Shown here: piece after piece, positions 3,503-57,120 of the stretch
How positions within the stretch are numbered: position 1 is the first letter of the stretch
Layout of the letters: each line of letters starts with the position of its first letter
Origin: Amoebophrya sp. A120
Taxonomy: Eukaryota; Protista; Dinoflagellata
Assembly: GCA_905178155.1 (NCBI GenBank)
Contig: CAJINV010000007.1
Location: 2,275,151 to 2,339,150, forward strand
Length of the DNA: 64,000 nucleotides
Direction: 5' to 3'
Program-made: the position numbers and the translations under genes
Notes under the pieces: model-generated
Told to the model about the DNA's origin: nothing
Database searches by the model: none
What the model saw: only the letters and a program-made list of their open reading frames with translations

Positions 3503-6301
3503 TCAGGCCGTCAAAATTGTTATCATGTCGTCTGTGACGTTGTTTTCCTTCAGCATCGTCCGTACCACAGCGTTGAACCCGGATGGGCCGGAGACGATTA
3601 CTCGACAATCCTTCACCATTCTCGAAACCGCTTTTTTCAACGACTCCACAGATATCCTGTTCCTGACCAGTTCGCAATTCGGCAGACCTTCGAACTCAGC
3701 CAGCTGGTCGTGTTGCTTCATTTCGTCGAACCCCCGGGACGAAAACGGCATAGTTCTTGCGCCAGTTACATCTCCATTGTTCTCCTCGTAGTCTGATGCA
3801 ACACTACTCGTTTCCCCTGTCAAGTGCAAGACGCAATTCCTCAAGCCCTGCGGTCCGTTTGCGAGGCGTCGTTTCTTTTGGTATTCGCTCTCCTCCTCCG
3901 CTCCGGCGGGGCCTGCTCCGGACCCCTCCTTGCACCATTGAAGGATTTCGGGAAGCATATCAAAAGGAAAAATCCCCCCTCCCCATATTGCAAAGATATG
4001 CTTCCAAAAATTTGTGTTGCGGATTTGAGGTCACAAATCACCTCTGTCTTGCAAGAAGACAAGGGCAGAAGTTTCCGCCACATTACGGAAGCTGTTTGTC
4101 ATGCTGTTGGGCATAAAGGGGAACCGTTTGCCATGCTGAACAACTAGACCCATACGCCCCTACCTAGCCTGGGGATCTGGCCGCCATGCCTCTCTGCAAT
4201 ACAAAGCTGATTTGTGGCCACAAATCAGCATCACAAATTTCCGTTTTGATATGGGGAGGGGGGATTTTTCATTTTGATAGAGCATCAAAATATCGTCCTT
4301 CCGACAGGAGAGGACCAAATCGATTGCGATCTTCAACTGGTCCGTCTTTCTCGTCGCGATGTTCAACTTGCTATACGGATCGCGGTGCGCCAAGACCTGG
4401 GGGAGCGCAACGACGCCGGTTCCGCCGAGGACGAGGAGGATGGACTTCTGGATCTGTTTCGGCATCTGCGCGTCTTCCGGGATAAGGTGAGGGAGGGTAA
4501 GGGTGATAACCGGCTGGGAAAGGTAGATTTGAATCTTGTTGCTGCTGATCTCGACATCTTTGCTGGGGGTTGTAGTTTTGGCTTGTTCTTGGCTGTTCAT
4601 CACGACGTCGCCTGAGCCCCCTGCTGAGCTGGGCGCAACTGCACTTTGGTTGATGTCCGCATGGTAATCATTCTCATCAACTACCACTTCCGTCCCCGCC
4701 ACGACCCGACTACTCGACCTAAATTCGTCCTCTCCACCTCGTCCACTTGGTTCATCAACCTGATCAGAAGTACTATGCAGCCTCTTCGAGATCGTATGTA
4801 GCCAGCTTGTCGCCTGGCCATCGGGGTAAATTTTGATCAGAATGTCACAAGTCCCCAGCTCCCACTCCTTGGCACTGCTGATGGGTGTGTAGTCACGCTC
4901 GACCCAGGGTAGTGGCCCTTCGTCTTCGATTTCGTCTTGTGACTTCGATTGTAAAACCAAGTCCAGATTCCGCGGCGCAAGCAATGTTGTGTGCCACGTT
5001 TTGGGAATCGGCATCTTCCCGCGGCCGCGGGGGTGTGGTGTGGCGCGTTTTTTGTCTTGCGAGGAAAAGTGGAAGACAGCGGAATGATAAGAAACCGGGG
5101 TCACTTTCTCCAACGTCCACTTGGTGTAGTTGTCAATGGCTTCTGGGAAGACAAAATTCCTGTTTCGCTCCGAAGTTTTATTTACAGCGGAGGAAGACGA
5201 AGATGCCGATGCGGTTGCTGGAATTGCGTTGCTTGGATCTTGTGATGCTGCGCCGACATCAGAATCTGGAGATGTTGCAGCACTCGCGTCGTTTTCGCCT
5301 GCTCTTTTCGCCTTCGCCAAATCCGTCAGCATTTGCTGCGTTGTCGTCGTGCCGTCGAATGTTTTCCACTTCTCTTTCTCCCCACCCCCGCCGACGTTCG
5401 TCGCTTCCGCCAGCATTTTCGCTTTACATGTGTCGATGAAGAGTAGCAGCCGCTTCAAATTCATCACCGGCATCATCATTTTTTCGTTCGGATTCATCGC
5501 CGAACTGACCTCAGTCGAACTATCCATCAATTGCTCCAGCTTCTTCTCAATAGCCCCCACCGCTTGTTCGTCCGCGTGTTTGGAAAGCAAGGAGATCTTC
5601 TTCCTGGTTAAATTTTCCAATTGCTCCTGCAAAAAAGCCTTGTTGCTCATCGCCTGCCTTGCGTTATTTGCCCCGAGAGCTAGACCTGAAGAGGCGCCGC
5701 CTGTTTGCATTAAACTCTGCTGCAGCTGCTGATTTGCTCCTTTCCCGAGGGAAAAAAAACGCTTTTCCGCGTTCTGCAGCACCTTGCAGCCGTCCTTCCA
5801 AAAGCCGGCCATCTCGAGTAAATTTGCCTGTGCGATTGCGAGTTCCACAAATTTCTTCGCGTCGAAGGAGTCGATTTGTTCCACCTCCCCGGTCAGCTTT
5901 ACTTGCGCGGACAACCCCTTGAGCGCCGTGTTCCACTTGAAAACCGACGCCGCGTACTGCCGGCTGCGGCTCAGTCTGATGTCCTCTAGCCTCCTCTTCG
6001 CGTTTTCGTCCAGGAAGCAGGACTGGAGTAAAACGCTCGCCGCAATCCCGGCGGCAAATTCGATCATCCTTGCAATGGCGTCGGAGGTGGAGAGTCTCGT
6101 AAAGGGGGTTTCGTTTCTCCGGTTCTTCACCACCACGACGCCCGGCGCCTGGCTGCAGAGCCCCAGACACCCGGATTGATGGACGGCGCAGGTGTTTTTC
6201 GCGTCAGAACCACTGACAAGCTCTTCGATCTCGATCAGCGTGGCTTCGGACCCGGCCTTGCGGCAGGAACCCGCTTGGCAAACGAGGATGTCGACGGCCA
6301 T
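3503..6301 (-). CDS. Thioredoxin-like [2Fe-2S] ferredoxin fused to a cytochrome-b5-reductase/FNR-type FAD/NAD(P)H oxidoreductase (~823 aa; exons 6301-4280, 3952-3503)
   Basis: N-terminal CQAGSC...SGCLGLCSQAP; FAD motif RDYTPIS and KIYPDGQATSWL; NAD motifs GGTGV and SGPSGF; ORFs 4160..6301 and 3503..3958 join in frame (DDILML|PEILQW) after removing the 3958-4279 element plus one direct repeat. Confidence 0.8.
3958..4279. mobile_element. Introner/MITE-like element, family D (322 bp)
   Basis: TIR TATCAAAAGGAAAAATCCCCCCTCCCCATAT / ATATGGGGAGGGGGGATTTTTCATTTTGATA; flanks AAGCA (3953-3957) and GAGCA (4280-4284); interrupts CDS, removal restores frame. Confidence 0.9.
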
Positions 6302-7319: not shown

Positions 7320-9974
7320 CTATAAGGTGCCAACACCTTCCACCACGACATCGGCCTTCTGCACGGGTTCGCGATATTCCGCTGCAAAGTGCCAAAAGCC
7401 GAACACCAACTGTTGAGTTTCGGGGCCATCTGGCGAGCTGCCAAGAACTTCTCGGCAAATACTGGTCGATGTGATTTGCACTGGCAGTCTTGCGAGCGTC
7501 ATGATCCGTCGGAGCTCGTCGACTTTATGTTGTACCGCTTCCGCAGTGATTCTTCCGCACCTTTTGGACGTCGTCGAGGTCGAGGTGCTTACTTTTGCAT
7601 GCGATCTGATTTTGTCGGAACAAGACGTGGCGGAAGCAGCTCGGGGGCCGTAGAAGAACTCACGCCAGTCGGTCGACCCGAAAAAGTATTGGAACACACT
7701 CTTTGGCAGGTAGTGCTTTTGGAGGCGATCCAAAACCACCGCTAACGGAACCCAGATCGTGTTGGGGGTGGCGTCCACGACGAAAGCTCCCACTAGCTGT
7801 GTGGAGGTCGATGAGTCGACTTCTTTCACCCCTGGTGCTGCAGCGAAAGACCTCCCCGTGTAGTGGTTCTTCTTGCCGAGCTTCACCACCGGGCACAACA
7901 TGTTTCGCACCGCCATCGCCAGAGTGTAGATCATGAGGGGCTCCAGGACCGCCCCGGGGAATTTCGAAAACGCCCCGGTGGAAAATGGATCGTAGATCTC
8001 GCCCTGATCGACGAAGGTCTGTTGCTTTTTCTTCGCGTACCGGACATCCGCAGCGGGTTTTGCAGCACCAGCAGGCGGCATCATCTTTTTCGACTCGGCG
8101 ACGAGATCCGCGAACGTCAGCAACCCGACAATGTCGTGTCTCTCCAGTTCTGCGGGATCGACGCGGTCTCCGCCGGCGCGGCTCAAGTTCACCATCAGCT
8201 CCCAGAAATCGAAATCGTGGGCGGCGCAGAACGCCTTCAACTCGTCGCGAAACTCCCGCTCGAGAAAATTCATCAGTTCGATCCGGTACCGCAGCTTGTG
8301 CCGCCTGTACTTTGCGTCCGCGTCCTGCATGCCCCTTTCCATCCGCATCAACTCCAGCGGATCTTGCTCCCCCGGAAGCGTCGGCGCCTGAATCGGAAAC
8401 ACCAGATTCGGCTTGTCAACGATGAACGGTTCGAGGAATAAGGGGATGTAGTGATCGACACGGCTGCTCTCGTCTTCTTCCCCACAAGAACTACCCCCGG
8501 CAGCGGCAGCTTGGGGGCACAAAACTTTCGCAAGCTCGAAGAAGATGCGCGGAATGTGTTGTCTCTCCCACGGCTGGAGACCCTCTTCGGGGTGGGAGAG
8601 GGCGGCGGCATGAAGAGAGTCGTGCCGCTGCATCTTACGATGTTCTCGCACGGGTCGCAAAACCAACATGAACAACTGCTCTTCCAGGTAGTTCACGGGC
8701 GCCCAATCCGTCAGCACACTGTCGGACGGAGCATAATTTTCCTCCTGGTTCTGGCCGAAGCTGTGGCTGATGTGCCCACTCGAGCAAGAGATACTAGCGG
8801 TAGACGTTTCATCTTCTGCTTGTTTGATCGGGGGGCTCTTGGGTTCGTCAACCTTCTGTTCAACACCTTCAGTTTGAAACTCGCCTACTGCCGATGGACG
8901 AGACCCGGATCCCTCTGTTTTACTCGGTGTTTTTCTATTTGTACCACCAGCGTCGGAAAAAGAACCACAACTGGACGTTGCAGCTTCATCGCATTGCACC
9001 ACTGAAGCGCAAGAATCGTCACTCGTGTCCGTCGATTTGCTTACAGCTGTTGCAGCTCCACCTGACGATGCTGCGCCCTTGGAGACACTGCAGATTTTTT
9101 TCGCATGAACATGATCTTCTTCTGGAAGTTCTTCTCGCGATTCTACGACGACATCATCAAAAGCATCACGCTCTTCAGGACCACAGCCCAGCACATTCGG
9201 CTTCTTCTTGCCTTGGGTGGCCGCGATCAAGGCAGCCGCCAATGCCTCGGCTTCACTGCGCAGAAGCAAGACCTTCTGCTCCTTGACTTGCTCGTGTAGC
9301 CAACGGCGCGAACTCCACGCAGATTTGCAACCCAGCTGACCTAGTACTGCTCCGGTGAGACCTAGCGTCACGATCGTCCCGGTGGAAGCGATTTCCCGGG
9401 CTTCTATTTTGCGATGCAGCTCCGCGATCTTCTCCTGGTGTAGAGAATCACTGTAGACAATCTTTCGGGCTTCGGCGGCGGCGGCCGCGTCCGTGTAGTG
9501 GCACGAGTCGCGCAGGTGCGCTTCCTCAGCGCTTCTTTCGCCGAACCAGGTACAGCCACGGTCGCGCATCGGGCAGGGGAACCGGATCGCAGGGCAGGTC
9601 TCCCAATGGATCGCTGCGTCGGAAAAGTTGAATGTGGCCTTGCAGCCAGTGCAAATCGCGTTCGCCTTCGCGATAATCGACCTCAACCCGCGCGCGGGCA
9701 CCCATTGCAATTTCGGCTGCCGGCAGTGCGGGCAGGAAAGCTCGTCGCTCACAGTTGTACCTGTGCCGTCATACTGCTGCTTTGCTTTTTCGTGTGCTTG
9801 TTTGATTCCCACGAGGCAGTCCTCGCAGAAATCGCAGCCGCAGCATGTCACACACACTGGATCCCGGGGCTTATCGTAACAGATACTGCACTCCAGATCG
9901 TTTAACAACGGATCATCATACTCCAACGCTGGCGGGACGAAAAGCTGCCTCGACCTTGTACCCGAGTCGCCCAT
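7320..9974 (-). CDS. RING finger + TRAF-type zinc finger protein (putative E3 ubiquitin ligase), paralog 1
   Basis: CSIC...CCGCDFCEDC...CPHCR RING, then CTGC...HWETC and CPMRDRGC.W.G.R...H...C fingers; ATG at 9974 within ORF 7320..10007; C-terminal region alignable by eye to paralogs (QPWERxH). Confidence 0.8.
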   Translation of the reverse strand: MGDSGTRSRQLFVPPALEYDDPLLNDLECSICYDKPRDPVCVTCCGCDFCEDCLVGIKQAHEKAKQQYDGTGTTVSDELSCPHCRQPKLQWVPARGLRSIIAKANAICTGCKATFNFSDAAIHWETCPAIRFPCPMRDRGCTWFGERSAEEAHLRDSCHYTDAAAAAEARKIVYSDSLHQEKIAELHRKIEAREIASTGTIVTLGLTGAVLGQLGCKSAWSSRRWLHEQVKEQKVLLLRSEAEALAAALIAATQGKKKPNVLGCGPEERDAFDDVVVESREELPEEDHVHAKKICSVSKGAASSGGAATAVSKSTDTSDDSCASVVQCDEAATSSCGSFSDAGGTNRKTPSKTEGSGSRPSAVGEFQTEGVEQKVDEPKSPPIKQAEDETSTASISCSSGHISHSFGQNQEENYAPSDSVLTDWAPVNYLEEQLFMLVLRPVREHRKMQRHDSLHAAALSHPEEGLQPWERQHIPRIFFELAKVLCPQAAAAGGSSCGEEDESSRVDHYIPLFLEPFIVDKPNLVFPIQAPTLPGEQDPLELMRMERGMQDADAKYRRHKLRYRIELMNFLEREFRDELKAFCAAHDFDFWELMVNLSRAGGDRVDPAELERHDIVGLLTFADLVAESKKMMPPAGAAKPAADVRYAKKKQQTFVDQGEIYDPFSTGAFSKFPGAVLEPLMIYTLAMAVRNMLCPVVKLGKKNHYTGRSFAAAPGVKEVDSSTSTQLVGAFVVDATPNTIWVPLAVVLDRLQKHYLPKSVFQYFFGSTDWREFFYGPRAASATSCSDKIRSHAKVSTSTSTTSKRCGRITAEAVQHKVDELRRIMTLARLPVQITSTSICREVLGSSPDGPETQQLVFGFWHFAAEYREPVQKADVVVEGVGTL

Positions 9975-10626
9975 CTTTGTTTCCCCAATTGGAGATTGTT
10001 GAATCAATTCCAGAACATTTGTTCAAAAAATATCCCGAACATCTGGTGGGTACGCGAAGAATAAGAAATTTGAGATGTTCCAAGTCTTTGGAGCGGTTCC
10101 CGGTCACGACGGAAACGACGAGTTTTTCCTTGCGACGAAAGACGACATTGACGCAACGGCAACAAGAGCAAGACGCATTTTCATCTAGTTACGGCGAAAA
10201 TAAACGACGGACCACTCCGACTCTCACGAGACTCACGGTCCGATCGAAAGACCTAGACAACATGAGTGCACGAGCACGACCATCAATCCATAGCGATTAT
10301 ATCGATTCACCACGACTGCTACCGATCCCGATCCCTTGCTCGCTTTCTACTCATCGCAACGAAATAGACGCGAAGCTTTTATGTTGGCCTTGATGTTTGG
10401 CCGCCGACCTCTTGATAACTTCACGGCCGTCGGTTTCACATATTAATTACCTTGTAGCTTTTCTAAACTTTCCGTTTCCAAGCAAATCCGTGTACAGTAA
10501 AGAATCTGATGTGCTAAATAATTCTGTAAAGCCTCCGAAACTGTACCGGAGTGCACTTGTATATTCGTATTTTCTTTGTCAAAAATAACCAATAACATCC
10601 TTGAATAAAACGACGCTTAGACTTAC

Positions 10627-10841
10627 TGATAGAACACAGACACTCAGAATACTATAGCCGTGATAGACTAAGAGCATATGCACCCGCTTCACTCACCTGA
10701 GTGGATTTGAAAGAATCATGGTTCGAGGTTCTACTCCCCGGAGGTCATTCATGTCATTTCATGATCATCTTTCTTATCGTTTGGATCTCTAGCTTTGCTC
10801 TTAGCTCTACAATGTAGGTCGTATTCTGATCCTTCCCTACA
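10627..10841 (-). repeat. 3' LTR of copia element
   Basis: 215-bp direct repeat of 16305-16519 (12 mismatches by eye), TG...CA ends, adjacent PPT AGAGGGGGAA on minus strand. Confidence 0.95.
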
Positions 10842-11207
10842 TTCCCCCTCTGATTGAACCAAGTCCAGAAGCAAGACGGCCTGCTAGGTGTCAAGTGACT
10901 CCAAGAATTGCCTGATTGCTACTTGCGACTTCAATCCTAGAGCAAACGAGAAAGGACCCGAGCAGCGGCTGGATCGTGTCAGGGTCTGAAGAGTACATCC
11001 ACCAACTCAACAGATTCGAACTCTCATAACCAAATGGCTACGGAGTACCGGTCTGATGCGCCAAAAACCCCCGCAGATACCCTGCTACCCGCCAAGTGAC
11101 TCCAGATGAAGCATCACGAGCGTGGGAGGAAGAGACCATCACAACCTACAACACAAGTTCCCGCAGTCCCTTGCGACCCTATCTACCCCATTCCCCCTCG
11201 ATTGCAA

Positions 11208-14200
11208 CTAGATAGCGCAATACAAGGCTAGAAGACCTTTCTTCTTGTCGGGAAGTGAATCCTGGGGCGGTGTGCGAAACACCAACAGGGGTTTCATCAT
11301 TGGTTTTGTCAGAGGATCTGCACGATTCAAACCAGTTGGACAGTAGCAGAGATCACCAGCGTGATCCTTGACCGAATGCCAGCGCACTTGGAAGTGCTTG
11401 GTCTTCTTAGTTGGAAGGGTAGACCCCGCCACGGTCAGACTGCTCTGATTGTCGCAAAAGATCTGAGGCAGCTGCTTATTGGTCTGAAGCCAATCAGCAT
11501 AACCCTGAGACTGAACGAGCTGCAAAGTGTCATAGAGAGCAATACACTCGCTCTCACAAGTACTATGCGCCCTAATCGACTGGCGACGACTCGACCAGGC
11601 TACCGGGCATCCCCGATAAAAGAGAATGGAGCCGCTACTACTCCTAAGTGTAACAGTACACCCAGCATAGTCAGCATCCGAGAACGCAACCCACTCACGG
11701 AGTTCGCCTCTCTCTTTGTTGTGCTGATCCAGCACCTGTTGGCAAGTTTCTTTGAACTTAGACTCAATTGCCGGAGAATACTCAACCCCCTCTGTCAGAG
11801 TATGCAACAGATACCGCGCAACCCGCTTAGCCGCAGTGATCAGAGCCCCAGTGGGATTGGTCATCAGCCTAGCCACCCGATTGACTGCGAAGAGACAATC
11901 CGGACGCGATTGCGTAGCAATGTATTGCAAACCCCCAACCAAACTCCTAATAGGGAAATCTGGCTGCGTGGCCCCCTCTGAAAGATCAGAGTAGACGCAC
12001 GGAGTGGACATTGGTTTTCCCGCATTGATCTGAAACTTTTCAGCCAACTTGCGAACTGCTTGCTCCATGTCCAACTTCATACGCTGCTTCTCAGCATTAT
12101 ACAAAAGCCGAACGCCTAGGATGTCCCTGATTTCAGTAACACCATCGGCAGCAAGTTCCGCTTTGATGATTTTGCCATCAAATTCACCAAGGATTTCCTT
12201 GATAATGTCATCTACTTCTTTCTGTGTAGGTGCACTGATCAAGCTGTCATCAACATAGATGGCCAGCGTCACAGAACCGCGACGGAAGAGACCAGGCTCA
12301 CTAGGATGGCGATCCCAACCATGCTTACGCAAGTATGCATCATAGCAGTCAAACCACTTACGCGGCGCAATCTTCAAGCCATAGAGAGACCGAAGAAGAC
12401 GCATGACATCACCACGACTATCCTTGCTCCAATGCTTAGGCAGACGGATGAGCACTCGGTCGCTCGTCCTGACCAAGGTCACTGCGAAGGAATGCATTAC
12501 TGATGTCAAACTGCCCAATGCGTTTCTTGTTCGCAGCAGCATCGACCAAGAGAACCCGATTTGCAGCATGTGAGATAGTCGGACTAAAGATCTCAGCCTT
12601 GCTGACCTTCGTCTGACGATTCCCCAACGCCACGCATCTGGCCTTGTATCGACCGCAGCGCTTCTTGGTGTAAATCACCACGCGTGGTATGGTCTCATCA
12701 TCATCGGATAGCTTATCCTCGTCCGATACTGGCCTCCAGGACTGCAAAGCTTCCAACTGCAACTTTTCAAGGTTGTCAGCCTCCATGTACTTAGCAGAGT
12801 CCGGCGCAGTAAGGGCATGCTTCCGTGTAACTTGAACCGTCCACGCAAGAGCTTGCTCACCTTCCTCCAAGTCATCAGAAAATACTGAGCCCGAGAACGC
12901 GGCAGCTACTTCCACATCTAGCTCAATCTTTTGCGCACCTGCCTGATTCGCTGCCGCATTGTTCTGACGCCTAGTCTTCCTGCCCTTGCGGGTAGACCAG
13001 TGCGGACAAAGTTCACGCGTGAGACCCGTCGGCCGACCACGACGTAGACGAACTTTGACCATTGAACCGCCACGCTTGACCCATTTGAAAGGATTCAAGT
13101 CGTCGTCGATCAAGTCTGAACAATCGCGCCGATCACCGGAAGGATTGCTTTCGTTGATCTCTTTGGGCCAGTCATGAAACTTACCAGCCCCCTCCGAAAG
13201 GTTGGGAAGTTCCTTCCGCTCGCCTATTTCCAGCTGGATACTACCATCTGAAGGCTTGTCGGAGTTTTGGTCGCCAGTCTCCTTGTCAGGTTGCTCAAGT
13301 GGCACCGACTCAGGTAGACCCGACTCAGGAGAAACCTTAACAGGACCACTGGCCTTGTCTTGGTCAACCCTGTCACCCTGATTCGAAATCTCCAAAGAAG
13401 GAAACTCCTCATCGAGTTTCTGTCGCTTAGCCGAAGGACTTACTTCAACCCCCGTAGGACGACGCAAACTATCTCCCGCCCCACCTCCAAGAATCAAGCA
13501 GAGGCCACGGCGCCTCCTCTCAATCAAGGCAGCAGGTGTGAGACTAGTCTGTCCCCCCTCCGGCAGCTGTTTCGGATCCTGCTTAAGCTCCTGAATGTCA
13601 CTAATGACTGCGTCTTCGAAGAATTTCATTGAGCTATTCTCCTCAACCACAAAGCGCCATGCGTTCGTCTTGTCGCTGAAGCGCCAAAGACCAACCAGGA
13701 AGCTTGAGGAAGTACGAGAGTAACCGAGAAAGACTCCACGCTCATAGCGATCATCCAGCTTTTGCTGTTGGGTATGCACTTTGGCATAGCACTCACATCC
13801 AAAACGACGCAAATGCTTTATGGATGCTGGACGATTCCAACGCCGCTGGAAAGGACTAGACTGCGACTTCTTGCGCTGCCGTCTGTTATAGACATAGGCG
13901 ACGAAGCGAGCACAGTACTCCCATAGGCATGGATCAACGCCCTGCATGTTGGACCTGATGCCATCGGCAAGTGTCCTACTCCATCTCTCCACCACTCCAC
14001 TCTGTTGCGGCTCATAAGGAGAAGAATGGATCGGGAGAATTCCGAAATCTTTGCAAGCCTTTTTCCAAGACGACTCAGCTCCTTTGAAAGTAGGCTCATT
14101 GTCTGTCCTAACCCGTTCGGGTTTGCCGACTTCTTGAACGAACTTCCGCAGGATGTCCCCACAGTCAGACTTCTTTTCAATAGCATAGACCTCGACCCAC

Positions 14201-16178
14201 TTGGTACAAGAGTCCACAAAACTGCGAAGATAGTGAGCACCTTTGAGCGCCGCAGGAAGCGGACCCATAAAGTCAGAATCGACTTGCTCCAGGAACTTCT
14301 TGGCAATATGTTCCGGCGGCCTAGTAGGCTTGTGCGATGCCTGTCCGTAGGACTTACTTTTCGCACAATCTCGGCAAGAGCAGTCAAAGCCTTCGACTTT
14401 GAAATGCGCAGGACGCCTGTGGATAGTCAATTTGGAACCGTAGGTGGCCCCAGCTGCTGCGCCAATGGTAGCGAACTGAGCCCGTGCCTCATCCTCGAAC
14501 GAAACACCAAACACAGATGCGCCGCCTTTGACTTCAAACTTGTGAGACTGACCACTGGGGTCGATGAACTCGCGCCAACCATTGGGATCCCCTTGAGGTC
14601 CACAATAGTGAAGCTGAGCCCCCTCACTCGCAGCGACTTCCATTGAGAACAATTCCCGAGACAACATCGGATGGAAAAGACCAAACCACATGCCCTTGCT
14701 GTTCGGTTTAAATTTACCAATAGCACCTTTCACATTGGATGCTCCATCCGCAGTGCTAAGAGATTGATCAGCTGGGCCAATCCACTCGAAACGACTACGA
14801 ACCAACGCCCGACATATGGTGGCTAGCACCTGTGTCAAGAATCATCCCACACACGCTACCCGACTTCCCATTCTGACTCCTAGCATTTTCACCTGAAAAC
14901 ACCTGCGCACTAGAAAGGGTCGTCGTTGCTGTGTACGACTTTGCAAGATTGCTCTGCGCCTGTACGTTAGACGAGAAACAGGCGCGGGCGAACGATCCAG
15001 AACGAAAACCATACACGTGACGGCTCTCATCCTCTACCTCAGAACAAACCAACTCGCTCTTCTCATCTGGCTCGGCCTCCAAAATGGGAGAAAGGGAGGA
15101 CACACGTTCGACCACCTGACCAGTTCGCTTACTGCGAGCATGAAAAGATCCTACCAACACACCAGAGCTGTCACGTTCCATAGAGGTGGAAAGTTCATCA
15201 TCTTCATCATCAACAGCCCTCGGAGCATGAGAGGCAGGCGCGGGAAATACCACAGCCATCGCACCCTGAGCACCTTCATCATCATCATCCTGCTGCTTGC
15301 CTCCCTTCTTGGCCTTGTGTTCTTTGTTCAACTTCTCGAAGCGAGCACGCAGATTCTTCGGAGCCTTGTTGGGATGCAGCACCCAGCAACTGCCAGGCGG
15401 ATGGATCTTGCTGCAGATTTTGCGCTTCTTTTTGTTCTTGTCTCCTCCCGGAGGCTTCAGAACAGCACTAGCGTTGGCATGCTTTTGCTTGTCCTTAACC
15501 GACTGCAACTCTTGACGAAGAGACTTGACCTGCGCAATCAGAGCACGGGGGTCCTCTTCCTTGTTCCCTTTCAGATTCTGCAACCCTTCAAACTCCTTCA
15601 GAGTGCGTTTGATCGTAGGGATGTCAGTCTGGTTCTGAGCCAACAGAGTACCAGCGACAGTGTTAAACTTGGAATCGAGTCCAATCAACACACTAGCCGC
15701 GAGGAGTTCATCAAGCGAGATCTTTCCCTGAAGGTCCTCCCGCGCAATCAATCCGCTGACGAGACTCCACGAACTCCTCAACAGGCGTGGAACCCTGGGG
15801 CATCAAGAGTTTCTTGTAGGCTGCCAAACGGCTAGAAGCTTCCTGAGAGTTGAACTTCTTAAAGATGCTAAGCATGATGCCGAACAAGTGTTGGTCATCA
15901 GCTTGCTTCGCAGATTGCAGCGCCGACGAACCCGCAGAAAGACTATTGACGACCTTCGTCTTCAAAGTCTTGACGGCTTTCGCAGCGTCTACAACACTCT
16001 GCAAGGCTTTCGCCTCATTCACGGCCTTCGTACCCTTGCAGATATCATCCAGGACACCATCTAGATCATGCTCCGCAAAAGCACTGGCGACCTTATACCA
16101 CCAGTCAGAATAGCTCTGACCGCCATCACCGGAGAACTTCTCCAGATCCAGCTCCTTGGACTTGTCTTGGGTGGGCAT
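11208..16178 (-). pseudogene. Copia gag-pol polyprotein broken into four overlapping ORFs (frameshifts near 15770, 14810, 12460)
   Basis: Protease ILDTGASHHM; integrase CRDC, VDSDFMGP, RTDNEPTF, PQQSGVVER; RT YKARCVA, FDISNAFL, LYGLK, YVDD; RNaseH FSDADYAG, STCESE, CDNQS, ADPLTKP; two of the frameshifts fall inside the conserved PR and RT domains. Confidence 0.9.
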
Positions 16179-16304
16179 GTTTTTGGTATTCTTCGGAAAC
16201 TGGTAGAGAAACTCTAGAAACCTACTCGATAAAAGAAAATCGCAAGCAATAGTAAAAGTATACTACTACTGAGTCCACTAAGCTCTAAAAGCTCAAGGCG
16301 AGAA

Positions 16305-16519
16305 TGATAGAACGCAGATACTCAGAATACTATAGCCGTGATAGACTAAGAGCATACGCACCCGCTTCACTCACCTGAGTGGATTTGAGAGAGTCATGGC
16401 TCGGGGTTCTACTCCCCGGAGGTCATTCGTGTCATTTCGTGATCATCTTTCTTGTCATTTGGATCTCTAGCTTTGCTCTTAGATCTACAATGTAGGTCGT
16501 ATTCTGATCCTTCCCTACA
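16305..16519 (-). repeat. 5' LTR of copia element
   Basis: Direct repeat of 10627-10841 followed by TSD CTTAC. Confidence 0.95.
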
Positions 16520-24139: not shown

Positions 24140-25352
24140 TCAGCCAGATTGGAAGTCACCAAAAAAACCATCATCGTCTTCAAATGGATCTTTATCAGCC
24201 GTGTTGTACCCCATCGGCGCACCAGGCGGCGCCGCGATCCCTCCCCCTCCGCTAGGTGGTGGCGGCATCGCGAATCCTCCTCCCCGATTCGGACTTGCGC
24301 CACTGCTCGTAGTAGTTCCGACCAGCTTGTTTACTGTGTTGTTCGCTTTATTCCCACCCCCTCCGGGGGTCTTCAAACTTCTGATGCTTATCTTCTCCCC
24401 GGCTTTCAAACTGTAGTCTTTCTTCTCAAAATTGATGGAGGATGATGCTTCTGCAGATGATCCGCCCGCCGGTCCACTGGAAGCAGCTGTTGAGGAGGCT
24501 GCTGATCCACCTGAACTCGTACCTCTGAAATCCGTTAAACAGCAGTTGAAATCGAACGCGTCGTTCCGGTCTTCGTATCCTGTGCAAAAGTATCGTACTC
24601 GTATTACAATCATGCATTACAAATTTTTTTCTCAAGGTAAATCCGCATTACAAATTTAATTTCTCATTCTCATGCTGAGGAAACTTGTAATGCATTTATA
24701 CGAGTACGTGTACGATACTTTTGCAATGCATACTTCGAAGCCCAAGCCGATGTACGCCGTTTTCTTCGTTCCCGGGTGCACTTATAAAATGTAAAAGTGT
24801 CTGGGTCTGGAAGAGGAGAAGTTTGTCATGCACATTTTACATGATCCATGATGTCTCTGATGTATGAAATAGCATCACAGATTTATCGAGCGCGAGCGCC
24901 TATCGATGCGCGTCCAGCATGACAAATGCCCTCTCCGCGTAGCCAAATTTGAGTCCTCTATCTGCTCATGCAATGCAGATTTTTTTAGCATCCAAATGCA
25001 GCATCACAAGTTTGGCTCTTCCAGACCCAGACATGTTTGCAATCCATAGCACTACTCGCAAGACGAAATACCGGCTGGAGTCGACCGTTCGTTCAATAAA
25101 TTTCTCGTGGTCCCCGTGTTCGATGACCGATTGCAGGAACATCTCCTCCGTGGCCGGTTTGACCAGGCGGAGCACCACGTGCGGCCCCTTCGCAACCACC
25201 CAGACCTTGCCCTGCCAAATGCAGTTTTTCCACTCCTCCGCCCGGTGTCCGGCGGCGGTCGCGCGGGGCGGCACCTGGAAGGCGTTGACGTCGCGCCGGT
25301 TCAGAATCGTGTACTCGATCTGTTGTTCCTCATCGTCTTCCGAAGAGGCCAT
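24140..25352 (-). CDS. NECAP: NECAP / adaptin ear-binding coat-associated protein (~259 aa; exons 25352-25049, 24777-24733, 24570-24140)
   Basis: Spliced product VPPRATAAGHRAEEW...VDSSRYFVLRVV|HPGTKKTAYIGLGFE|DRNDAFDFNCCL...SLKAGEKISI matches the PHear domain signature; both introns are TIR elements. Confidence 0.9.
24576..24732. mobile_element. Introner/MITE-like element, family B (157 bp)
   Basis: TIR TATCCTGTGCAAAAGTATCGTAC / GTACGATACTTTTGCAATGCATA; perfect direct repeat CTTCG (24571-24575, 24733-24737); removal restores GLGFE-DRNDAF. Confidence 0.92.
24783..25048. mobile_element. Introner/MITE-like element, family A (266 bp)
   Basis: TIR core TGTCTGGGTCTGGAAGA / TCTTCCAGACCCAGACA; perfect direct repeat GCACT (24778-24782, 25049-25053); removal restores YFVLRVV-HPG. 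Confidence 0.93.
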
Positions 25353-26966: not shown

Positions 26967-29900
26967 TTATTTTATCGCGACCCATCCCGGCAGCAGTTGC
27001 TTATTGGGCGACTTCGCAGCGCCAGCACCATCGCTCGGACGTGGCGACGCCCCGGGACTTACGGTCCCGGGTGGCAAGAGCCCCAGCTTCTGAATGTAGC
27101 CCGCTCGTATCTGCACCGGCGTTTTCATCCAGTTCGTGTCTTCGGACACGTCTACCACCTCGACTATCGGGTCAAAAACCTGAATGTGTGGCCCCAGGAA
27201 GGCACCGAACGCACGGTAGGGAAGTTTGTCCTCGTCAGAGGGGGACGCGATCGAAGTGGATGGGGAGACAGACCCCGATGCTGTCGTGCTCGGCACGGGA
27301 ATGGTTGTAGTGGAAACTGCATCGGGGTGTGATGTGTCTGGCTGCTGGAGCAGCTTTTCCCGAAGCATTTTCTCTTGGGAAGTCTTCGCCTGTTTTTCTT
27401 GCCTCTTCAGCATCTTGGCGCCACCCTTGTACACGACCAGGCCGATGAGAACGGTGAAAAGGGCGAACCTGGGATGTTTGAAAGAATGTATGTTCTTCCG
27501 GCGGATGTTTTGTCTTGTTCATCTTCGACCTGCCAGGACGACAAAAAGTTGTTATAGAACTGATGTGTCTGATGGTCCTCAGTCACGCGCTGGCCCCATC
27601 CATATATCTCTAAAAGCGACTACACCTGCTGGACCTGTATACAACTACTTCTAGGTACCAGTCCACCATTCGCATCGGCACCGCGGAGCTTCCCATGATG
27701 ACCGGCGACGCGAAGAGCACGCTGGTGATTGGCAACCGAGCGGCGTTGATAACGAAGTAAAAGCTGGCCGTGCCGTACTTGACGAGCAGCATACAGAGGA
27801 TGTTGTAGGCGATGTTGAAGGAGATGTACATCGTGGTCGCAAAGCCAGCGGCGTCGCACTTGTCGCACGGCCGCAGCCCCTGCATCCGGGGGAAGGTGCC
27901 GTCGTCGCAGTCGTCTTTCACGGTGTTGTATCAAATGTAAAAATGTCTGGGTCTGGAAGAATCTAAACTTGTGATGCTGTCTCTGGATTCGAAAAACATT
28001 TGTATTGCATGACCAGTAAGAGGAGTAGATTTTGTGCTCCACGGAGATGGCATTTGTCATGCGGAATAGGTATGAGGAAGCGCTCTAAAAATCTGTGATG
28101 CTACGGCATGCATCACAGACATCATGGGTCATGGAAAATATGCATGACAAATCTAGAAATGTTCCAGACCCAGACATTTTTACACTTGATATGTTGATGC
28201 CGATGAAACACTTCGCGCCGTCGATGAAAGACGGAATCATGTCGTTCAATGGGATTTGGCTGATATTTGTGTTGATGTACGTGTCCATTTACAAGTTCTT
28301 GTGTTCGCATCTACTTCCAACATGCACTGCAAACTGATCCCGCTCCGTGCTCTTATTGGTCTTGCTGTGCGTCAGGGATTCAGCAAAGTACAACGAGCAA
28401 TTCTCAAGATTTAGTACAATACATTCACAGAGGACCACGCGCAGCGGTGAATAAAAAGAAAAAGTACCTCGGCCCCAAAATCGGCAGAGTGTACAGCGGA
28501 CAGAGAACGAAGTTGAAAAGCCCCTGGAAAACGGCAACCCACATCTGGATCAGGTTGACCGAGAGGTTTGGGACATCCTGGAACGCGACTTCCTTGTATA
28601 TTGTGGACAGTGCAGTGGGAAAATTGCTCGACGCGAAAATCATGTTGAAAGTAACATTGTCACCGGAGTCCGTGGTAGCGGCTTGGGGCCCGATCTTCGA
28701 GACGGCTGGTTTACGTATTATGATGCAGTAACTAGTTCTAGTGGTGCCTAAAAATGTAAATGACTATGATATGATATTACCAATTCGCTAGTTGTATCAT
28801 GATCAACTGCACCAAGCAATCTCTTTACCAACGCCTCCGACTATGACTGCTGCGCCGAGGTACTGGTAAAGATGGAAGCGGCGTCGCAGCAGCAGGACCG
28901 ACAAAAGAATCGTCACGGGGATGGCTCCTTGTGTGAGCAACACCTGGGTGCCACCGGCGGTGTAGGCACCGCCGAGAACCTGAGCGGGTTATTTGAAGAC
29001 GAAGATACAGATAGACGTCAACATTACATATATTAAGTTGAAGCAAGCATCTTCTTCTTCAAGGGTGGGTGAACCTGAAGTAGACACAGTACGGGAGGTA
29101 CTCCTCCTGAATCTTTGAATCCGCCAACGACAACGACATGTACTTAGCTCCGCCTGCAGTGCCTGTGCCAGTCTGCTCAATAACAGTACTAGTTCTAGTT
29201 CTAGTACCATGGTCATCCCGGCGCAGGCATCGAGCAAGCCCATGACCGCCGTCTTCCGCTTAGGAATGTCGCCTCCCGCTTTCTGCTCCCACATCTTCTC
29301 CAGCTCGGTCGCAAAGTAGAAAAACGGAATGAACACTATCGTGGTCACGTTCGTGGTGAACCAACTGTAATTCGCAAGGGAAGTGGTCATCTTCTTGAAG
29401 TAAATCGTGTTCCCGGTCGCCATCAGCATGTAGCACCCGTACATCAGTGCTTTCTGCCAAGAACTGAGCTTTTTCCTGGACATCGGTGCTGCAGTACTGC
29501 TTGTGGTCTTGGTGGCACTTGTAGCTACCGCGCCAGCGCCACTATTTTCTACTTGTCTGCCGTCAAGATTTGAAACACCAGGTGGATGCACCGTGGCAGA
29601 TGTTTGATGTCCTCTATTAGGATTGCTCCGGTTGATGATGTTCTGCTGGTCAACAAAGAGCTTCCCGGGGCTATTGAAGTTCGTTTTGTTCGGAGAGGGA
29701 GGCTTGTTGTAGTAGCCTCCGAGAATCCCGCTATTACTCGCCGGACCTCCACCTCCGCCTGCAGTGGCCCAGGGTGGCTGTAGCGACGAGGTGGATGATG
29801 TGCTGTTGTTCCCTCCCAGGAAGTTGATTTGCTGTCCTCCGTAAAAATTGGCACTTATTCCGGGCGGCGTGATCAACGGCGCGGCCTGCTTCGACGGCGT

Positions 29901-36336: not shown

Positions 36337-36338
<2 letters not shown>

Positions 36339-36366: not shown

Positions 36367-36367
<1 letters not shown>

Positions 36368-49902: not shown

Positions 49903-51405
49903 GGTGATGCTTGTTATCGCGTTGCGCTAAACTAGAAGTTGATAGGATTTACGCAGATTCGGATTTTTTTTTTCATCGTGAGTACTAGTTGACCGGAGTT
50001 GTAATCTTAGTAGATAGAAGGGAAGCTGCGGGTAAGTACAACAACACTAGCATGCAGACAAGGGGAAAACACGTGTTGAAGAACTCCAATCTTCTATAGG
50101 CGTCGGGGGATACCGTCTCAAAATTGCATAGCTTCAACTTCAAGAGTTCTGTTCCTGTTACACATAGACTTTTGATGCTGATGTTTTTCTAGAACGTAAA
50201 AAATAAAGGGAGGAGCATCAGTAGTCTGCTGTCTTCCGTTATCGGGAAGAGAAGTTCAAGTTCTTCAATAAATTACGGCCGGCGGACGAGATTTAGCGAT
50301 TTACGACGACCACGAACGTGTACGCACGAAACCAGTACCGACGTTCTTTTCGAAAACAAAGGTTTGGTAATTGAGCACGAGCATCGCAACAGGAAAAATT
50401 CAGATTGCACCACGACATGACCGAACAAATAAGGGCCCACCTACGATGGCAGATGAAAACGACGGGGACCGATCTACTCTCAGCTCGCCACAAAACCGAC
50501 GCAAATTTTTGTACGTCAGAAGCAAGTGACAACTGAGCCTTCGTTCCCTGAGATACGCAACCGCATGACCGCAAATTCTTACTGTGGAAATTTGTAAACA
50601 ACGAAACAGCAATCGCAGCCAACCGTGGCATTGCAGCGGTGCTTTTCGCGCTCGTCGTCTTCGTGTATCGTTGGGGACAAGGAGCTACTTTTTCTTTACT
50701 TTATGAGCTTTTGAATAACAACTTCTGCTCTGGTTTGGTTTTCCATTTGTTTTCATTTTCAACGGCAGACGCGGAAGCCGGCAGAGCCTTTTCATTTTTC
50801 CAAAACAAGACGAAACTTCAAAACGGGGCGTCAATCAGAACAGGCTGCGTTTCTCAACACTGTGCGATAACATTGACTTATGCCTACACGAGTAGGCTGA
50901 TGACTTGTGTTCTCAAGGATAAGAAAAAGATAAAGAATATCAATCAAGTGGGGAAATAACATTATCTTCTTACGTAGGGTATTTTTCTTTTTACTTCTGC
51001 GTTTAGACCACCGCAGCTGGAGCTACACCGAAGATTTATGTTGAAACAGAATTTCAATTTTGTTTGTGAGTCTCTCTCTGTTCTTCGTCCACTATTAGTT
51101 CTCACTGTCATTCGTCTTCTTCTGAGCTAGAATCCGACACCCGCGCCACTCCGGACGACGAGCTGCTCGTGCTCGTCCTTCCACCCCTGCTCGCGAGCGT
51201 CGACCGTCTATGAACTATCGAATTTCTTATCAAACAAAAGAATAGTAGCCTCCATGTCCATCCTGTCCCCGTGTGCACAACAACAAGAAGATCACACCTG
51301 CATGACTCAAATTCTATCTCAGTACATCGAATAAATCGATGAACGTGCTCCTGTAAACGTATTTGAAGTCGGGCGCACGACGTTCAAGGGTAGAACTAGA
51401 AGCAG

Positions 51406-54400
51406 CTAGCTTCTTATTTTTGTTTTGATACTTTTCCGTTTCTTCGCACAGAGCCGTGTAAAGCAGACCGCCAAGCCAAAAGCGATGATGAGACAGCAAA
51501 ACATGCAAACCAAGCCGAAGATATCCACAGAAAAAAACCCATCCACATCCAATTTGTCATGCAAAAAATGGATGTGGATGGGTTTTTTTCTGTGGATAGA
51601 AGAGGAGCAGGTCGTAGAACTTTTTCTGCTCCTCCGCCAGCCGCTGCTCGTGCTCCTCCCGCAACTGCACAATTTGCTTCCGCATCAGCTCCTGCTGCAA
51701 ATCGGTGTTCTCGTGCTTCGCCAGATTCGCCGCAAACTTCACGTCCAAGAGGTCTTGCGCGATCATTTCCCGCTGCCGCTCGCCTTCCCGGAGCAGCCGC
51801 GTTTGCTCCGCGATGGACTTCGCTAGCTGCTCCGCCTCAGCCCCCGTGCCTGCTGATGCTGGATCTCCACCTGGATGCTGGTCGTCATGACTTACTTCTA
51901 GGGAAGCCGGAACATCAGCAGAAGAGCCAGCAGCTCCGGGCGTTGGAAGTTGTCCTAGAAGTCCTCTACTCTCGTCTCGTCCACTAGTACCAGCACCACC
52001 TCCTCCTCCTCCCCCGCCCATACTTCCGGTTGTTCCCCCGGGCGAGTGGGGTGGCGGCTTTGCCCACGAGGCCAGCTCCGGCCGCAAAGTGCGCCGGCGC
52101 ACCTGCAAGTCCCGAATGGTCGACCTGCGAACCTGCAGATCCTTCGTCAATTGCTGCTGGCAAGCAGTGAGCAGTTTCTGGCGGTAGAGCACCGCCTCGA
52201 GCCGCAAGTCGGCGTCCATCATGCGCCGCTTGAGTTCGAAAAAATTGGTGATGGTAAACGCGGTGGACAGCTTGTTACTTGACGTCATTATTCCTGCTCC
52301 TTGTCGGTTATTTTGCATCTCGTCCGTTGCAGAAGTTCCGGAGTTTGGTGGAGACAGAGCTACCCCTGAAGATTTATTGCGAACGAAAAAAACCGCGCGC
52401 CGTCGGATACTAGGAACCGCCGCCGTCCCAACATGTTGAGAAGACACAGCGGGCGACGATGACCTCCTATCGCCCAGCAAGGTTGATGTCACTACAGGCA
52501 CCATCAGGATCCCTGTTTCCTCGGGCCACCAGTACTTGTGTAGTACGTTCCCCTTCTGGCCCCAGCGCCAGGGGATCACGTACACAAGCCACGTCATGGG
52601 TAGTTGCTGGTTTCTTGTTTGTGTTGCGGAGGAGGTCTCGTCAACTGTAGTAGAAACTCCAGCCCTCCTTGTTCCTTCAGAAGACCCGGAAGAACTCGCC
52701 CCCGCGGCCAGGCGCTCCATCCGCTTTCTCTCCGCCAATCGGAGAGAAACCTGGTCTTCCTGAAAACGTTTCAGTGCCGCGTTGCGCAAATCGATTTCAT
52801 CTTCCACGCCACTCGTGGGGATGTGGTCGTCCCCCTGCTGTCGGCGGTGGTGCACCGAGGTGCGGAAGGTTGCATTTTTCACCTCCTCGGGAGAAGGTTC
52901 TTGTGAATCCATTCTTGAGCTACCGACTGCTGGTGGGCCTGCAAGATGAAAATTGCGATTCTTTCTTGCGTGTTGCTCCGAGGAGCTGTTTGTGGGTGGA
53001 GAGAGCGTACAGGCCTCGTCCAAGTCTTCCAGGGTCATCTGCAGATGTTGTTGCTTTTGAAAATTAGGCACGGACAATGAGAAATCCGTCACGTCGCCTT
53101 CAGAACAGTTGCGAAGGTCCGACTGTTCCTTGTTCGTGCCCGTTCCATTTCCGAGAAGGCCTACTTTCGGCGGCAGTGTATACCCTTCCTTTACCAGTAT
53201 CTCCTCGACACTGCGCTGCACTTCGAGCAGAACGTTTGCTTTGCTCTTCTCAGGCCGCCAAAAGAAAAACTCCGCGGTTGTGCGGAAGGGCGAGAGGGCG
53301 GAAGAAGTGCGTTGTTCTACTTGAGTCGTGTCGTCCGCAGGAGTCGCGCCGTCTTTGAAAAAAGGCACGTTTGGTCGTGGGCAGGTGTTTGTCAGGGCAC
53401 CACCTGCAGATGGTGTTTGATCTTGTAGCTTTCTTGTCGCCCCCCTCGCGTCTCCAGCAGCTCGAGCTCCTCGCTGTGGTTCAGAGGTGCTCGCAATTCT
53501 ATTTCCGTCGCCTGCCGATGTAGTTGCATCTTCGACAAGATTCATAGCCGCTTCGCCGGAGGAACCAAACGTCGAAAGTTGCTCTCTCCTAGCTTATATC
53601 AAATGTAAAAATGTCTGGGTCTGGAACAATGCAACTTGTCATGCTAAATCGGAATCATGTAAGAATCATGTGTGTTGCATGATTACCAAAAGCTGTCCAC
53701 TTTTGACCTAATCGAGAGGCAGTTTCTCATGCACGATAGGCATGATAGAACTCTCACAGAGTCTGTCATGCTATGTCCTTCATGCCAGACCTCATGGGTC
53801 ATGGAGAACCTGCATGACAAATCGCGCATTCTTCCAGACCCAGACATTTTTACATTTGATAGCTTCTTCCCGATCCTCCTCCAGCAGCAGTGCGGAGGGC
53901 CTAGGCCGCCCACGGTCACGGCTCGAGGCCTGATTCACGGCATTACCGCCAATGCTGAGCCTGCGGGACCGCCCTGACGCGGTTGTGCGGTGCGAAGATG
54001 AAGTGGATATGCAGGACCCAGCGGACGCTTGCAGATGGTCCGCGGACCCGGCCTGGTGTGGTCTCACCAAGCCCGACTGCCGGCGGGAGGAAACAGACGT
54101 CGCGGGCCTATTTGCTCCTGTGGTGCAGCCGCCGCCCTGCAACAGGTTCAAGTCGGCACCACCGCCAGCAACACCACAACATGAAGACCCTGCAAAAGCG
54201 TCCGGCACAATTGCCGCGAAGTCCAAAAATTCCTGCGAAACTTCCGGCACCAAGTTGCCCGGCTCCGTCGTCGAAATGGGGTGGCGGAGCTGAAATTTCG
54301 CATTGGCTGGGAGGTGAAGGAATTCCGGAGGTTTCGCGGCTTCGGAATGTTGATGAAGCGGAGGGGGCGTCGTGACGGGTCTAGTTGGCTCACCAATGCT

Positions 54401-57120
54401 CGTCGAGTCCGGGTCCACTTCTCGAATATCTGGCATGTTCTGTTGTACTTCTACACGCTCGGAGGTCCGATCGCTTTCATGATCGTTATCCACCGCACCC
54501 TCCACTCGGTCGTACACGCCACTCGCCAAGCCGCTTTTCCATTCCGGCGCGAAGGAGCTGGCCTTCGCTAAGCGAGAAAACCGCAACGGGATTTCCAAAT
54601 CGCTCTCGTCCAAATAGGTCGGCGGCCGCAGCGGAACCGCGGCCCTCCTGGCCCGCTGCATCTTGTTCAGCCAATTGGAGCCGCTGCTGGTCGTAGTGGA
54701 GGTAGGAGCCGCGGGCGTCGGGGCCTGAGGTGGACCCATGCCGCGATCGTTTTTTGCTTGTCCACTGTTCTGAGCCGCTGCGTGCGCGTTGGCGTTCTTG
54801 CCCTCGATCTCGGCCGCCTGCTGCAACACGCGGTCTTGGAACTCCAGAAATTTCCGGTGGTTTTTCCGCACCGCCGACTCGAGTCGGCCCTTGATGATCT
54901 GTTTCCAGAAAAAAACCTCGTCCTGTTCTTCCTGCAATGCATCCTTTCTCGCGTAGTCCTCGAGTGCGGCCTGCTTGTTGATCATGTGGTCCTCGCATGG
55001 GCCACGAGTCTGCAGCAGATCCTCAGTGCTGCTCGTCGGGTCGACGTTTCGTCGAGCGTCAAGCGCTGAACTTTGCCGATCTAGGTGTCTTCCACCCGAG
55101 TCAGTAAACGATTCGTCCTGCGGACAAAAATTTGTAGCAGATGGTCCTACTCCCGCGGGCGCAGCCAGCTGCGTAGTTGGTGTCATCGCATTGCCAGTCT
55201 TTTCGTTCGAACTTTTCCACAAGCCTGCCAAACCTGTCCCTGTAGGAACCTGCTTCTGAAACTTGTCGACACAACCCCGCGGATTCCAGGGCGGTAATCG
55301 CTTGGGGAGCCAAGGTGGGTAGTGTGGACTCTCGTTTTCCTTGTACGCTGCAATCGACGCGGTTGTGTTCGCAGTTTCGTTTCTAGCACCTTGAGCGTTC
55401 TTGAGCTGCAATCTGTTACCACCGATCTCACAATGCAATCCTGGCGCCGCCGCGGCCGTTTCTGTAGAAGAGCCACCACCCCCACCTCCCAGAGGGATCT
55501 CGGAGGCGGAACCGGAAGAGCAAGTCAGGTAATTATCCTGCGTTCGTTCTTCGTATCAAATGCAAATATGTCTGGATCTGGAAACAGGAAACTTGTGATG
55601 CAAGCCAGGGAATAGTACTGGGCGCACTGTCATACGTGGCCAAGCATGACAAGAAGCTTTTGAGCTGCTATGTGTAGCTTATTCCGCATGGCAGACTGCG
55701 GCTGCGCTTTTGCGTCACAGACATCAAAACGATCCTTTTGCACCTACGCATGACAGAGCTTCGAGTCATGTGCATGTCAGACAAGCATGACATATCTGGC
55801 AATCTTCCAGACGACCCAGACACATTTGCAATGCATAGTTCATCGTCCGGATCCTCGTCCGAACACGACGCGAATTCGTCTGCAGCGTGCTTCGTTCTGA
55901 GGTTCGTGGAGGTCGACGTCCACAAACTCCCCGGCGGGTAGCACTTTTCCGCAACCAACTCCCTCCTCGCACTGTTATGCGCGGTCAGTTTCACCTCCCA
56001 GTTCTTCGGCGGTTCCCGTTCCAAGTAGTAGTGCGACCCCGCGCCGAAGGGCAGCCAGGAGCTCGGGCCTCTGCAGCGAAACTTGTCCGACACGACGGCG
56101 CCGGTGGCAAGCTCGACCACCTCGCCGAGTCCGTCCCTCTCGCGGATGTCGTGCAGGAGAAGAACGGTAATTCTTTTCAATTTGCGAAACTTCAGGTCTT
56201 CGGCGGACGACGGCCACTTGCGCTCGGCGCCGCGGGCCTGTGCGTCTTCCTCGTCCGTGGGGAATTTCCAGTTCTCGATCTTTTCCCTCAAGGAAGAAGT
56301 AGGTGGCGTGGGTGCGAGGGAGGAACTCCTGCTGTCGTTCGCATTCACATTACGATTACCTCGCCCATCCTCGTGCCCGACGGCGCCATAATTTCCAGCT
56401 GCATTGTTCGGAAGTGGTAACAGACTGCTCTGCTGTGGTCTCGGTATGATTGATGCACTTGTTGCACCTGCTCCACCTGCGCTGCGCCCAGCAGGTCGTC
56501 GCGGCTGCAGGTCATGTGGATCATCCAAAAGAGGATGGGACGACCAAGAAGAGCTTGTCTTGGGCTCCGGGGTGCTGGTTCCATGATACCAGGTGTCGAA
56601 TTCATGGTCGGAGACCACGTACAGACCAGCGGCGCAAAGTTTAGGCTTGCTGTGGTCAATATCAACTGTAAAAATGTCTGGGCCTGGAAGATTTCCAGGT
56701 TTGTCATGCATATATATTTCGAATGAGCTATGATGCCTGTAATGCATGACCTAGCATGACAGATTTTTTGCGGGTATCTTGATGCCTATCCCGCATGACA
56801 AATGCTCTCTCCGCGGAGCAAAAACTGGACGCCTCTTGCTGCTCACGCAATACAGATTTTTTCAGATTCCAAAAATAGCATCACAAGTTGCATTCTTCCA
56901 GACCCAGACATTTTTGCAATCCATAGTCAATTGTCGTGGCTTGTTGCGCGGACGAGAGCGATGCCGGAGGCGCGATGGTTTTCTGCTGGTGGTGCAGCTT
57001 TCGCCCTATCGCCAAGGACGACCGATTGGTGAGACCTGAGAACGATAGGACTGCAACGCAAACGCAGTGGATGAAGAATAGACGAGCATGGATCAGCCTT
57101 CTACCCAAACAGAGAAGCAT
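51406..57120 (-). CDS. Large hypothetical protein (~1600 aa): N-terminal hydrophobic leader, low-complexity body, coiled coil, C-terminal TM; exons 57120-56926, 56654-55838, 55548-53862, 53591-51599, 51516-51406
   Basis: Five ORFs join in one frame when four TIR elements are removed (TTID|HSKP, DDE|xRTQ, EEA|RREQ, LLLF|GLVC); start codon uncertain. Confidence 0.75.
51522..51598. mobile_element. Miniature introner, family C (77 bp hairpin)
   Basis: Perfect 30-bp TIR TATCCACAGAAAAAAACCCATCCACATCCA around a 17-nt loop; perfect direct repeat GAAGA (51517-51521, 51599-51603). Confidence 0.92.
53597..53861. mobile_element. Introner/MITE-like element, family A (265 bp)
   Basis: Perfect 30-bp TIR TATCAAATGTAAAAATGTCTGGGTCTGGAA; flanks GCTTA / GCTTC; removal joins ORFs 53792..55438 and 51557..53545 in frame. 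Confidence 0.92.
55554..55837. mobile_element. Introner/MITE-like element, family A, diverged (284 bp)
   Basis: Degenerate TIR TATCAAATGCAAATATGTCTGGATCTGGAA / TTCCAGACGACCCAGACACATTTGCAATGCATA; flanks CTTCG / GTTCA; removal restores frame. Confidence 0.85.
56660..56925. mobile_element. Introner/MITE-like element, family A (266 bp)
   Basis: TIR TATCAACTGTAAAAATGTCTGGGCCTGGAAGA / TCTTCCAGACCCAGACATTTTTGCAATCCATA; perfect direct repeat GTCAA (56655-56659, 56926-56930). Confidence 0.92.

Follow-up and report, generated by a model that had tools for sequence, protein, structure and literature searches.

Introners of the dinoflagellate Amoebophrya sp. A120 share a short internal box, GCAT[G/C/T]ACA[A/G], whose middle position is rarely A (0-2% of copies). 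On balance we consider it probable that this box is the double-stranded-DNA-binding site of one trans-acting transposase mobilising all families. The elements that carry it are of the same kind as the introners described in A120: they are non-autonomous TIR DNA transposons spliced out as introns. Features common to the families are TAT…ATA termini, a 5-bp duplication and the box, while the TGY of the termini is not shared. The shared box and its 31-33 bp spacing appear to be undescribed, whereas the elements and their end grammar were already known. No mention of the box or its spacing was found in the literature within our scope, outside which lie subscription papers (e.g. Roy et al. 2023) and supplementary figures, of which Farhat S19-S25 and Gozashti S9 may show the motif.

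Elements in the window

The window, that is, the whole 64,000-nt stretch of contig CAJINV010000007.1 that was analysed, holds 12 elements. A preliminary description implied eight; all eight are present, to which E, F, G and the decayed element X are added here. The four dissimilar TIR bodies it distinguished (families A to D) and all motif copies it cited were confirmed. Elements are listed below; "skip" is the number of nucleotides passed over by contigs of runs X1-X4.

3958..4279, minus strand, family D introner (322 bp, TAT…ATA, duplication AAGCA/GAGCA)
24576..24732, minus strand, family B introner (157 bp, duplication CTTCG; skip 162 = 157+5)
24783..25048, minus strand, family A introner A1 (266 bp, duplication GCACT; skip 271 = 266+5)
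27929..28191, minus strand, family A introner A2 (263 bp, duplication TGTTG; skip 268 = 263+5)
37760..38067, minus strand, decayed element X (308 bp, sense TAT…ATG, no box)
38520..38792, minus strand, element E (273 bp, duplication GCGGA/GAGGA, single 1-mismatch box at 38707, minus strand)
51228..51430, minus strand, element F (203 bp, duplication 3/5, only a 2-mismatch box, spliced)
51522..51598, minus strand, family C introner (77 bp, duplication GAAGA)
53597..53861, minus strand, family A introner A3 (265 bp, duplication GCTTA/GCTTC; skip 270 = 265+5)
55554..55837, minus strand, family A introner A4 (284 bp, duplication 3/5)
56660..56925, minus strand, family A introner A5 (266 bp, duplication GTCAA)
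60401..60607, minus strand, element G (207 bp, B-like ends, duplication GGACT, 1-mismatch boxes; skip 212 = 207+5)

The insertions interrupt coding sequence and are seen in both element orientations; A2, for example, lies opposite to A1 and A5. By a coding model, 10 of 11 window elements have minus-strand host reading frames. For A3 the minus host strand follows from frame restoration and a contig RNA joint, and at the D element the minus-strand frame opens to 676+151 codons once the element and 5 nt are removed. In the full sample described below, 286 of 342 elements could be assigned a host strand, and neighbouring calls were concordant in 143 of 145 cases.

Copies of the motif lie at 4096-4104(-) and 4228(+) in D, at 24614(+), 24645(+) and 24685-24693(-) in B and at 51554-51562(-) in C, the last being the one box of that element and placed between its two TIRs. 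Each of the five window A elements has 2-3 exact copies. In D, six boxes form three same-direction pairs of 32 bp each (4020/4052, 4104/4136, 4196/4228). A 31 bp spacing separates boxes 24614 and 24645 of B, which has a third box at 24693(-), and boxes 56847 and 56878 of A5.

Several other features share the window. A full-length Copia LTR retrotransposon lies on the minus strand at 10627-16519, with 215-bp LTRs 94% identical, TG…CA ends, the 5-bp duplication CTTAC, and rve + SH3 and RVT_2 in separate frames; it was rejected as a partner of the introners on account of its TG…CA ends and box-less LTRs. Three paralogous minus-strand ORFs with a Sina zinc finger, two of them also with RING, flank it (7323-10022, 16928-19525, 21445-23307). 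Host genes include those with a CRT-like transporter domain (28992-32297) and DUF1681 (24143-24616), and a short AACAACATGC-rich tandem array occupies 32646-32765.

A box shared by dissimilar families

Related loci were collected by scanning metagenome contigs with the family-A end pattern, which returned 178 loci; the 177 of them from the JACKZZ01 record series had a merged length of 411,302 bp. Since this pattern served as bait, the sampling is biased to family-A-rich regions. The family-A TIR pattern gave 0 matches in the viral contig and genome contig collections. Elements were sought without use of the box. A first search yielded 312 TAT…ATA elements, of which 301 were kept and 11 dropped as weak or over-long, and 41 more came from a second search that dropped the A-run rule (1-19 at decoy offsets), for a total of 342 in the window and related contigs. 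Among the elements of the 312-element search, perfect 5-bp target duplications numbered 235 at offset 0 as against 0-5 at seven decoy offsets. Two of the loci, L035 and L046, are 90% identical over 5 kb in opposite orientation; as alleles or paralogues they are usable for dating insertions. Summed contig depth in run X5 exceeded 100,000 over family-A elements (window 53242-53875 and 56412-57045) compared with about 30 elsewhere, which suggests thousands of copies, depth being no copy number.

The motif is far commoner in the elements than in background. GCAT[G/C/T]ACAA occurs 19 times in the 2,583 bp of 11 window elements versus once in the remaining 61,417 bp, and 300 dinucleotide shuffles of the window elements, a composition-matched control, gave a mean of 0.16 and a maximum of 2 copies. 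In the related contigs, 331 elements totalling 81,299 bp hold 657 box copies (8.1/kb), compared with 55 copies in 259,854 bp of masked background (0.21/kb). Another box lies within 150 bp of 36 of these 55 background boxes, and such clustered copies are probably undetected or decayed elements. The core box is present in 329 of 342 elements, in 14/14 multi-copy families and in 31/35 singletons. The motif is thus common to dissimilar families, as the preliminary description held, and reaches beyond its four; that every element carries it is true of nearly all (329/342), but F and X have no box even at one mismatch.

Box-masked BLAST between families returned a single link among the 342 elements (I-K, 37 bits), and similarity scores of window element pairs other than family A were close to shuffle maxima; on these grounds the bodies of the TIR elements are dissimilar between families.

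The termini are less uniform than a start of TAT-N4-TGY followed by an A-run, which, with variants of TGY allowed, had been proposed for all families. That grammar holds at 300/328 ends of A and 71/82 of B and in part for H (13/34), but at 0/34 ends of D and 0/4 of C, and at none in I, J, K and M. Four families start with TATG without an A-run, yet have TAT…ATA, the 5-bp duplication and the box. The looser inverted-repeat start of TAT + 7 nt + at least 3 A is found in all 11 intact window elements, TIRs are about 20-50 bp long, and the direct repeats of 3-5 nt at the boundaries by which A120 introners are recognised are here 5 bp. A 4-bp duplication plus spacer was rejected, the 5-bp reading fitting better. 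A C preceding TAT, seen in 8/11 window elements, is no general rule (21% of 286), and TATG versus TATC ends are not linked to host direction (A 29 vs 33, B 12 vs 14). Common TIR tips of the form TAT-GCATTGCAAA (e.g. window 24720-24732) look like TAT and a box with one mismatch, and families A and B have these tip variants in common.

Spacing and conservation of the box

Relative to the element ends, the box avoids roughly the outermost 30 bp, and the first copy usually lies 35-55 bp inside. Its direction depends on the family: outward at 281/328 ends in A, inward at 63/82 in B. In 12/14 families, at least half of the element copies have a same-direction pair 31-33 bp apart, or three helical turns. 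The family-weighted score for such pairs was 26.3 against 4.7±1.6 for random layouts (maximum 9.8 in 300 layouts; 339 elements shorter than 420 bp), and with exact boxes only it was 10.0 against 1.2±0.8. The 31-33 bp window was picked after inspection of the histogram, the next-best of 30 windows scoring 5.0, and the families are not independent in this test, B, I, J and K having partly common box layouts. Only the 31-33 peak stands, overall periodicity at 10.5 bp being 0.35 versus 0.34 at period 12. Spacers flanking paired boxes are 0.17-0.39 identical in multi-copy families, which argues that the pairs did not arise by tandem duplication.

Box letters also change slowly. Private changes were found at 231 of 6404 box letters (0.036), 3251 of 35064 other interior positions (0.093), 593 of 10008 TIR-body positions (0.059) and 74 of 779 instances of the box N letter (0.095). 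Slow box letters around a free middle letter are the pattern of a selected recognition site; with nearest relatives about 11-20% apart, the change rates register selection for transposition and selection by the host alike.

Splicing of the elements

Contigs of runs X1-X4, a single sample whose RNA nature is only guessed, skip the element + 5 nt at seven joints (B, A1, A2, A3, F, G and X). A register of 1 nt + element + 4 nt fits 7/7 joints and is the sole fit for X, where the unique intron solution is CTAT…ATCC. The skip at F is 208, its right side being inferred from an 85-nt contig piece. At C, X1/X2 contig pieces pick up at 51599, and at A4 RNA contigs end at 55549, the first duplication base. 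No RNA joint was seen for E in contigs of the presumed RNA runs X1-X4, or for A5 among the matches listed. The raw-read run X9 gave 7 reads only, every one on elements. In folding predictions the TIR stem closes in register in 61/63 sampled elements. The 1+4 register agrees with Table S4 of PMC7789003, in which NT donors dominate the non-canonical introns of A120.

Contig joints also delimit canonical GT-AG introns:

27467-27656, canonical GT-AG intron
28260-28467, canonical GT-AG intron
28706-28828, canonical GT-AG intron
28978-29205, canonical GT-AG intron
59672-59819, canonical GT-AG intron

All five start with GTA, so that T+2 and A+3 match the N-TAT of the introners. Splicing would be a job separate from that of the box: N-TAT likely serves as donor, and the TIR hairpin would set the acceptor 4 nt beyond the element.

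Readings of the box

The box might be an RNA signal, a branch point or splicing-protein site placed on both strands so that either orientation splices. The branch-point consensus is yUnAy, which GCA-U-N-A-C in the box would fit, and in family A a sense copy lies some 40-50 nt ahead of the 3' end in both orientations. In A120, moreover, no U1 is detectable, so that intron recognition must be unusual (PMC7789003). We nevertheless regard this reading as very improbable. Among the 286 elements with a called host strand, box copies number 407 sense and 443 antisense, no family has a significant orientation bias relative to the host strand, and 39 elements have antisense copies only as against 44 with sense copies only. 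A branch-like position is occupied 146 times versus 148 in a mirror control and by 0/35 exact copies in family B; boxes of family H do not pair among themselves in the folds (2% of box nucleotides). Since the box is strand-blind, absent from the canonical introns (no GCATNAC in 5/5) and missing in two spliced elements, X and F, the splicing or RNA-binding protein offered earlier as reader of the motif fails.

At the level of DNA, a host DNA-binding or chromatin protein (e.g. an AP2-domain factor) might bind the box, recruited by the elements for mobilisation, protection or nucleosome placement, and only the ends would be left for the transposase to read. Any double-stranded-DNA binder would suit the conservation, the helical spacing and the indifference to strand, family-dependent orientation suits an accessory factor, and neither the window nor the loci yielded a transposase; apicomplexan AP2 domains bind TGCATGCA, which shares a GCATG core with the box (PMC4117751). 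The same source, as far as available, separates dinoflagellate AP2 domains from apicomplexan and perkinsid ones, and a host factor sits poorly with a box that is nearly absent outside elements (1 in 61 kb; 0.21/kb, mostly clustered) and absent from the LTRs of the window Copia, so we hold it unlikely, although it is the chief competitor of the transposase reading. The box might also be without present function, all families keeping the subterminal repeats of one ancestor by descent. Common ancestry is implied by the common spacings of B, I, J and K (17/18/31/35) and by the common 45-50 bp outward pairs of N0, N2, N3 and A, and some TIR tips (TAT-GCATTGCAAA) resemble a degenerate box. Two observations largely refute this account, and we think it quite improbable: the N letter changes as fast as the spacer but the other box letters only about 40% as fast, and the spacers between paired boxes are unrelated. 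It is more improbable still that the box is a DNA adenine-methylation site marking or regulating the elements. C-AT-B fits the VATB preference of AMT1-type enzymes (PMC12695648) and the rarity of A at the middle letter is in keeping with it, but conservation of the ACA(A/G) tail and the 31-33 bp spacing are left unexplained, TAT/ATA is under-represented within elements generally (1247 vs 1635 expected), and the available text of PMC12695648 has no passage on Amoebophrya.

A proposed transposase site

Conservation, indifference to strand and a repeat distance of three turns suggest a protein sitting on one face of double-stranded DNA, and the likely candidate is the transposase of these elements, to which the site is confined. 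Transposase subunits would occupy the phased boxes on one helix face, from about 35-50 bp inside each end, and hold the two element ends together; cleavage at TAT and insertion with a 5-bp stagger would fall to a catalytic domain. With recognition based on the box, the two TIR bodies of an element would need to match each other but would be free to diverge from one family to the next. A rigid transpososome is countered by box orientations that vary by family relative to the ends. Of the common trans-acting factor and single superfamily put forward in the preliminary description, the shared ends, 5-bp duplication, conserved box and 31-33 bp spacing argue in favour; its splicing/RNA-binding alternative is not supported.

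Examination of orphan ends and long copies turned up neither a transposase nor an autonomous element in the window or in the 411 kb of loci. The long TAT…ATA copies (L030:505-1608, L041:632-1465, L014:3991-5245) are nested or interrupted by insertions and showed no Pfam hit and no transposase-like ORF. The enzyme is probably integrase-like, for in published work A120 has a family with integrase-like remnants whose TA/TA ends and 5-bp duplication are those seen here.

Relation to described elements

Short subterminal repeats in both orientations, bound on DNA by the transposase, are a feature of hAT (Ac), CACTA (En/Spm), Tn7 and Mu ends. Those elements have other termini and duplication lengths than ours, so the likeness is one of working mode, not membership. 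The A120 introners of Farhat et al. 2021 (PMC7789003) have the same inverted repeat of TAT + 7 nt + at least 3 A, 3-5 nt direct repeats, NT-NN splice ends and hairpin-forming non-canonical introns. Their duplication is treated there as variable, whereas it is 5 bp throughout here; four of our families, moreover, are without the A-run, and the phased box unites all families. In its available text, that paper reports no internal motif ("GCAT" and "MEME" have 0 matches in the supplement text), identified no candidate transposase in A120 and spoke against mobilisation by transposases as a general mechanism.

The family with integrase-like coding remnants is A120 family 38 of Gozashti et al. 2025 (PMC12130899, supplement 8 row 580: "Ginger; 5-bp TSD, TA/TA termini"), the only such A120 family among 40 of the 58 A120 rows; the other A120 introners are assigned there to LTR, non-LTR and diverse TIR classes. 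Compared by description only, it is likewise a TIR element with TA/TA termini and a 5-bp duplication, but differs in its length of about 810 bp and Copia/Gypsy-like coding remnants. IS3EU/GingerRoot elements (PMC10045372, PMC6839031) have TA…TA termini, no target preference and GC-rich duplications (57% GC in duplications here), but their duplication is 6 bp rather than 5 bp, GingerRoot TIRs are 100-150 bp long as against about 20-50 bp, and no counterpart of an integrase-related DDE transposase was seen in the window or loci. Ginger1/Ginger2 have TG…CA termini (PMC6839031), unlike the TAT…ATA found here. An identity as Copia LTRs or solo LTRs was rejected, the elements being bounded by inverted repeats and not by TG…CA direct LTRs. 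In PMC11282704, Amoebophrya appears solely in the reference list.

Significance

For the movement of introners, the genome paper offers no A120 transposase, and the later survey split the elements among several TE classes. The phased box makes the missing-transposase question testable, as a conserved bait for the mobilising protein and a signature for the autonomous element and a re-count of families. It also separates a transposition signal, the box, from a splicing signal, N-TAT and the TIR hairpin, a split that bears on how a spliceosome with no detectable U1 removes introns without GT and AG. More tentatively, nearly all introners of this genome, described in print as hundreds of families with mixed origins, may form a single unclassified TA…TA / 5-bp superfamily with a single integrase-derived transposase reading the phased boxes and not the TIR body, a possibility we entertain with some doubt. 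If true, TIRs would be free to diversify and TAT would double as an orientation-independent splice donor.
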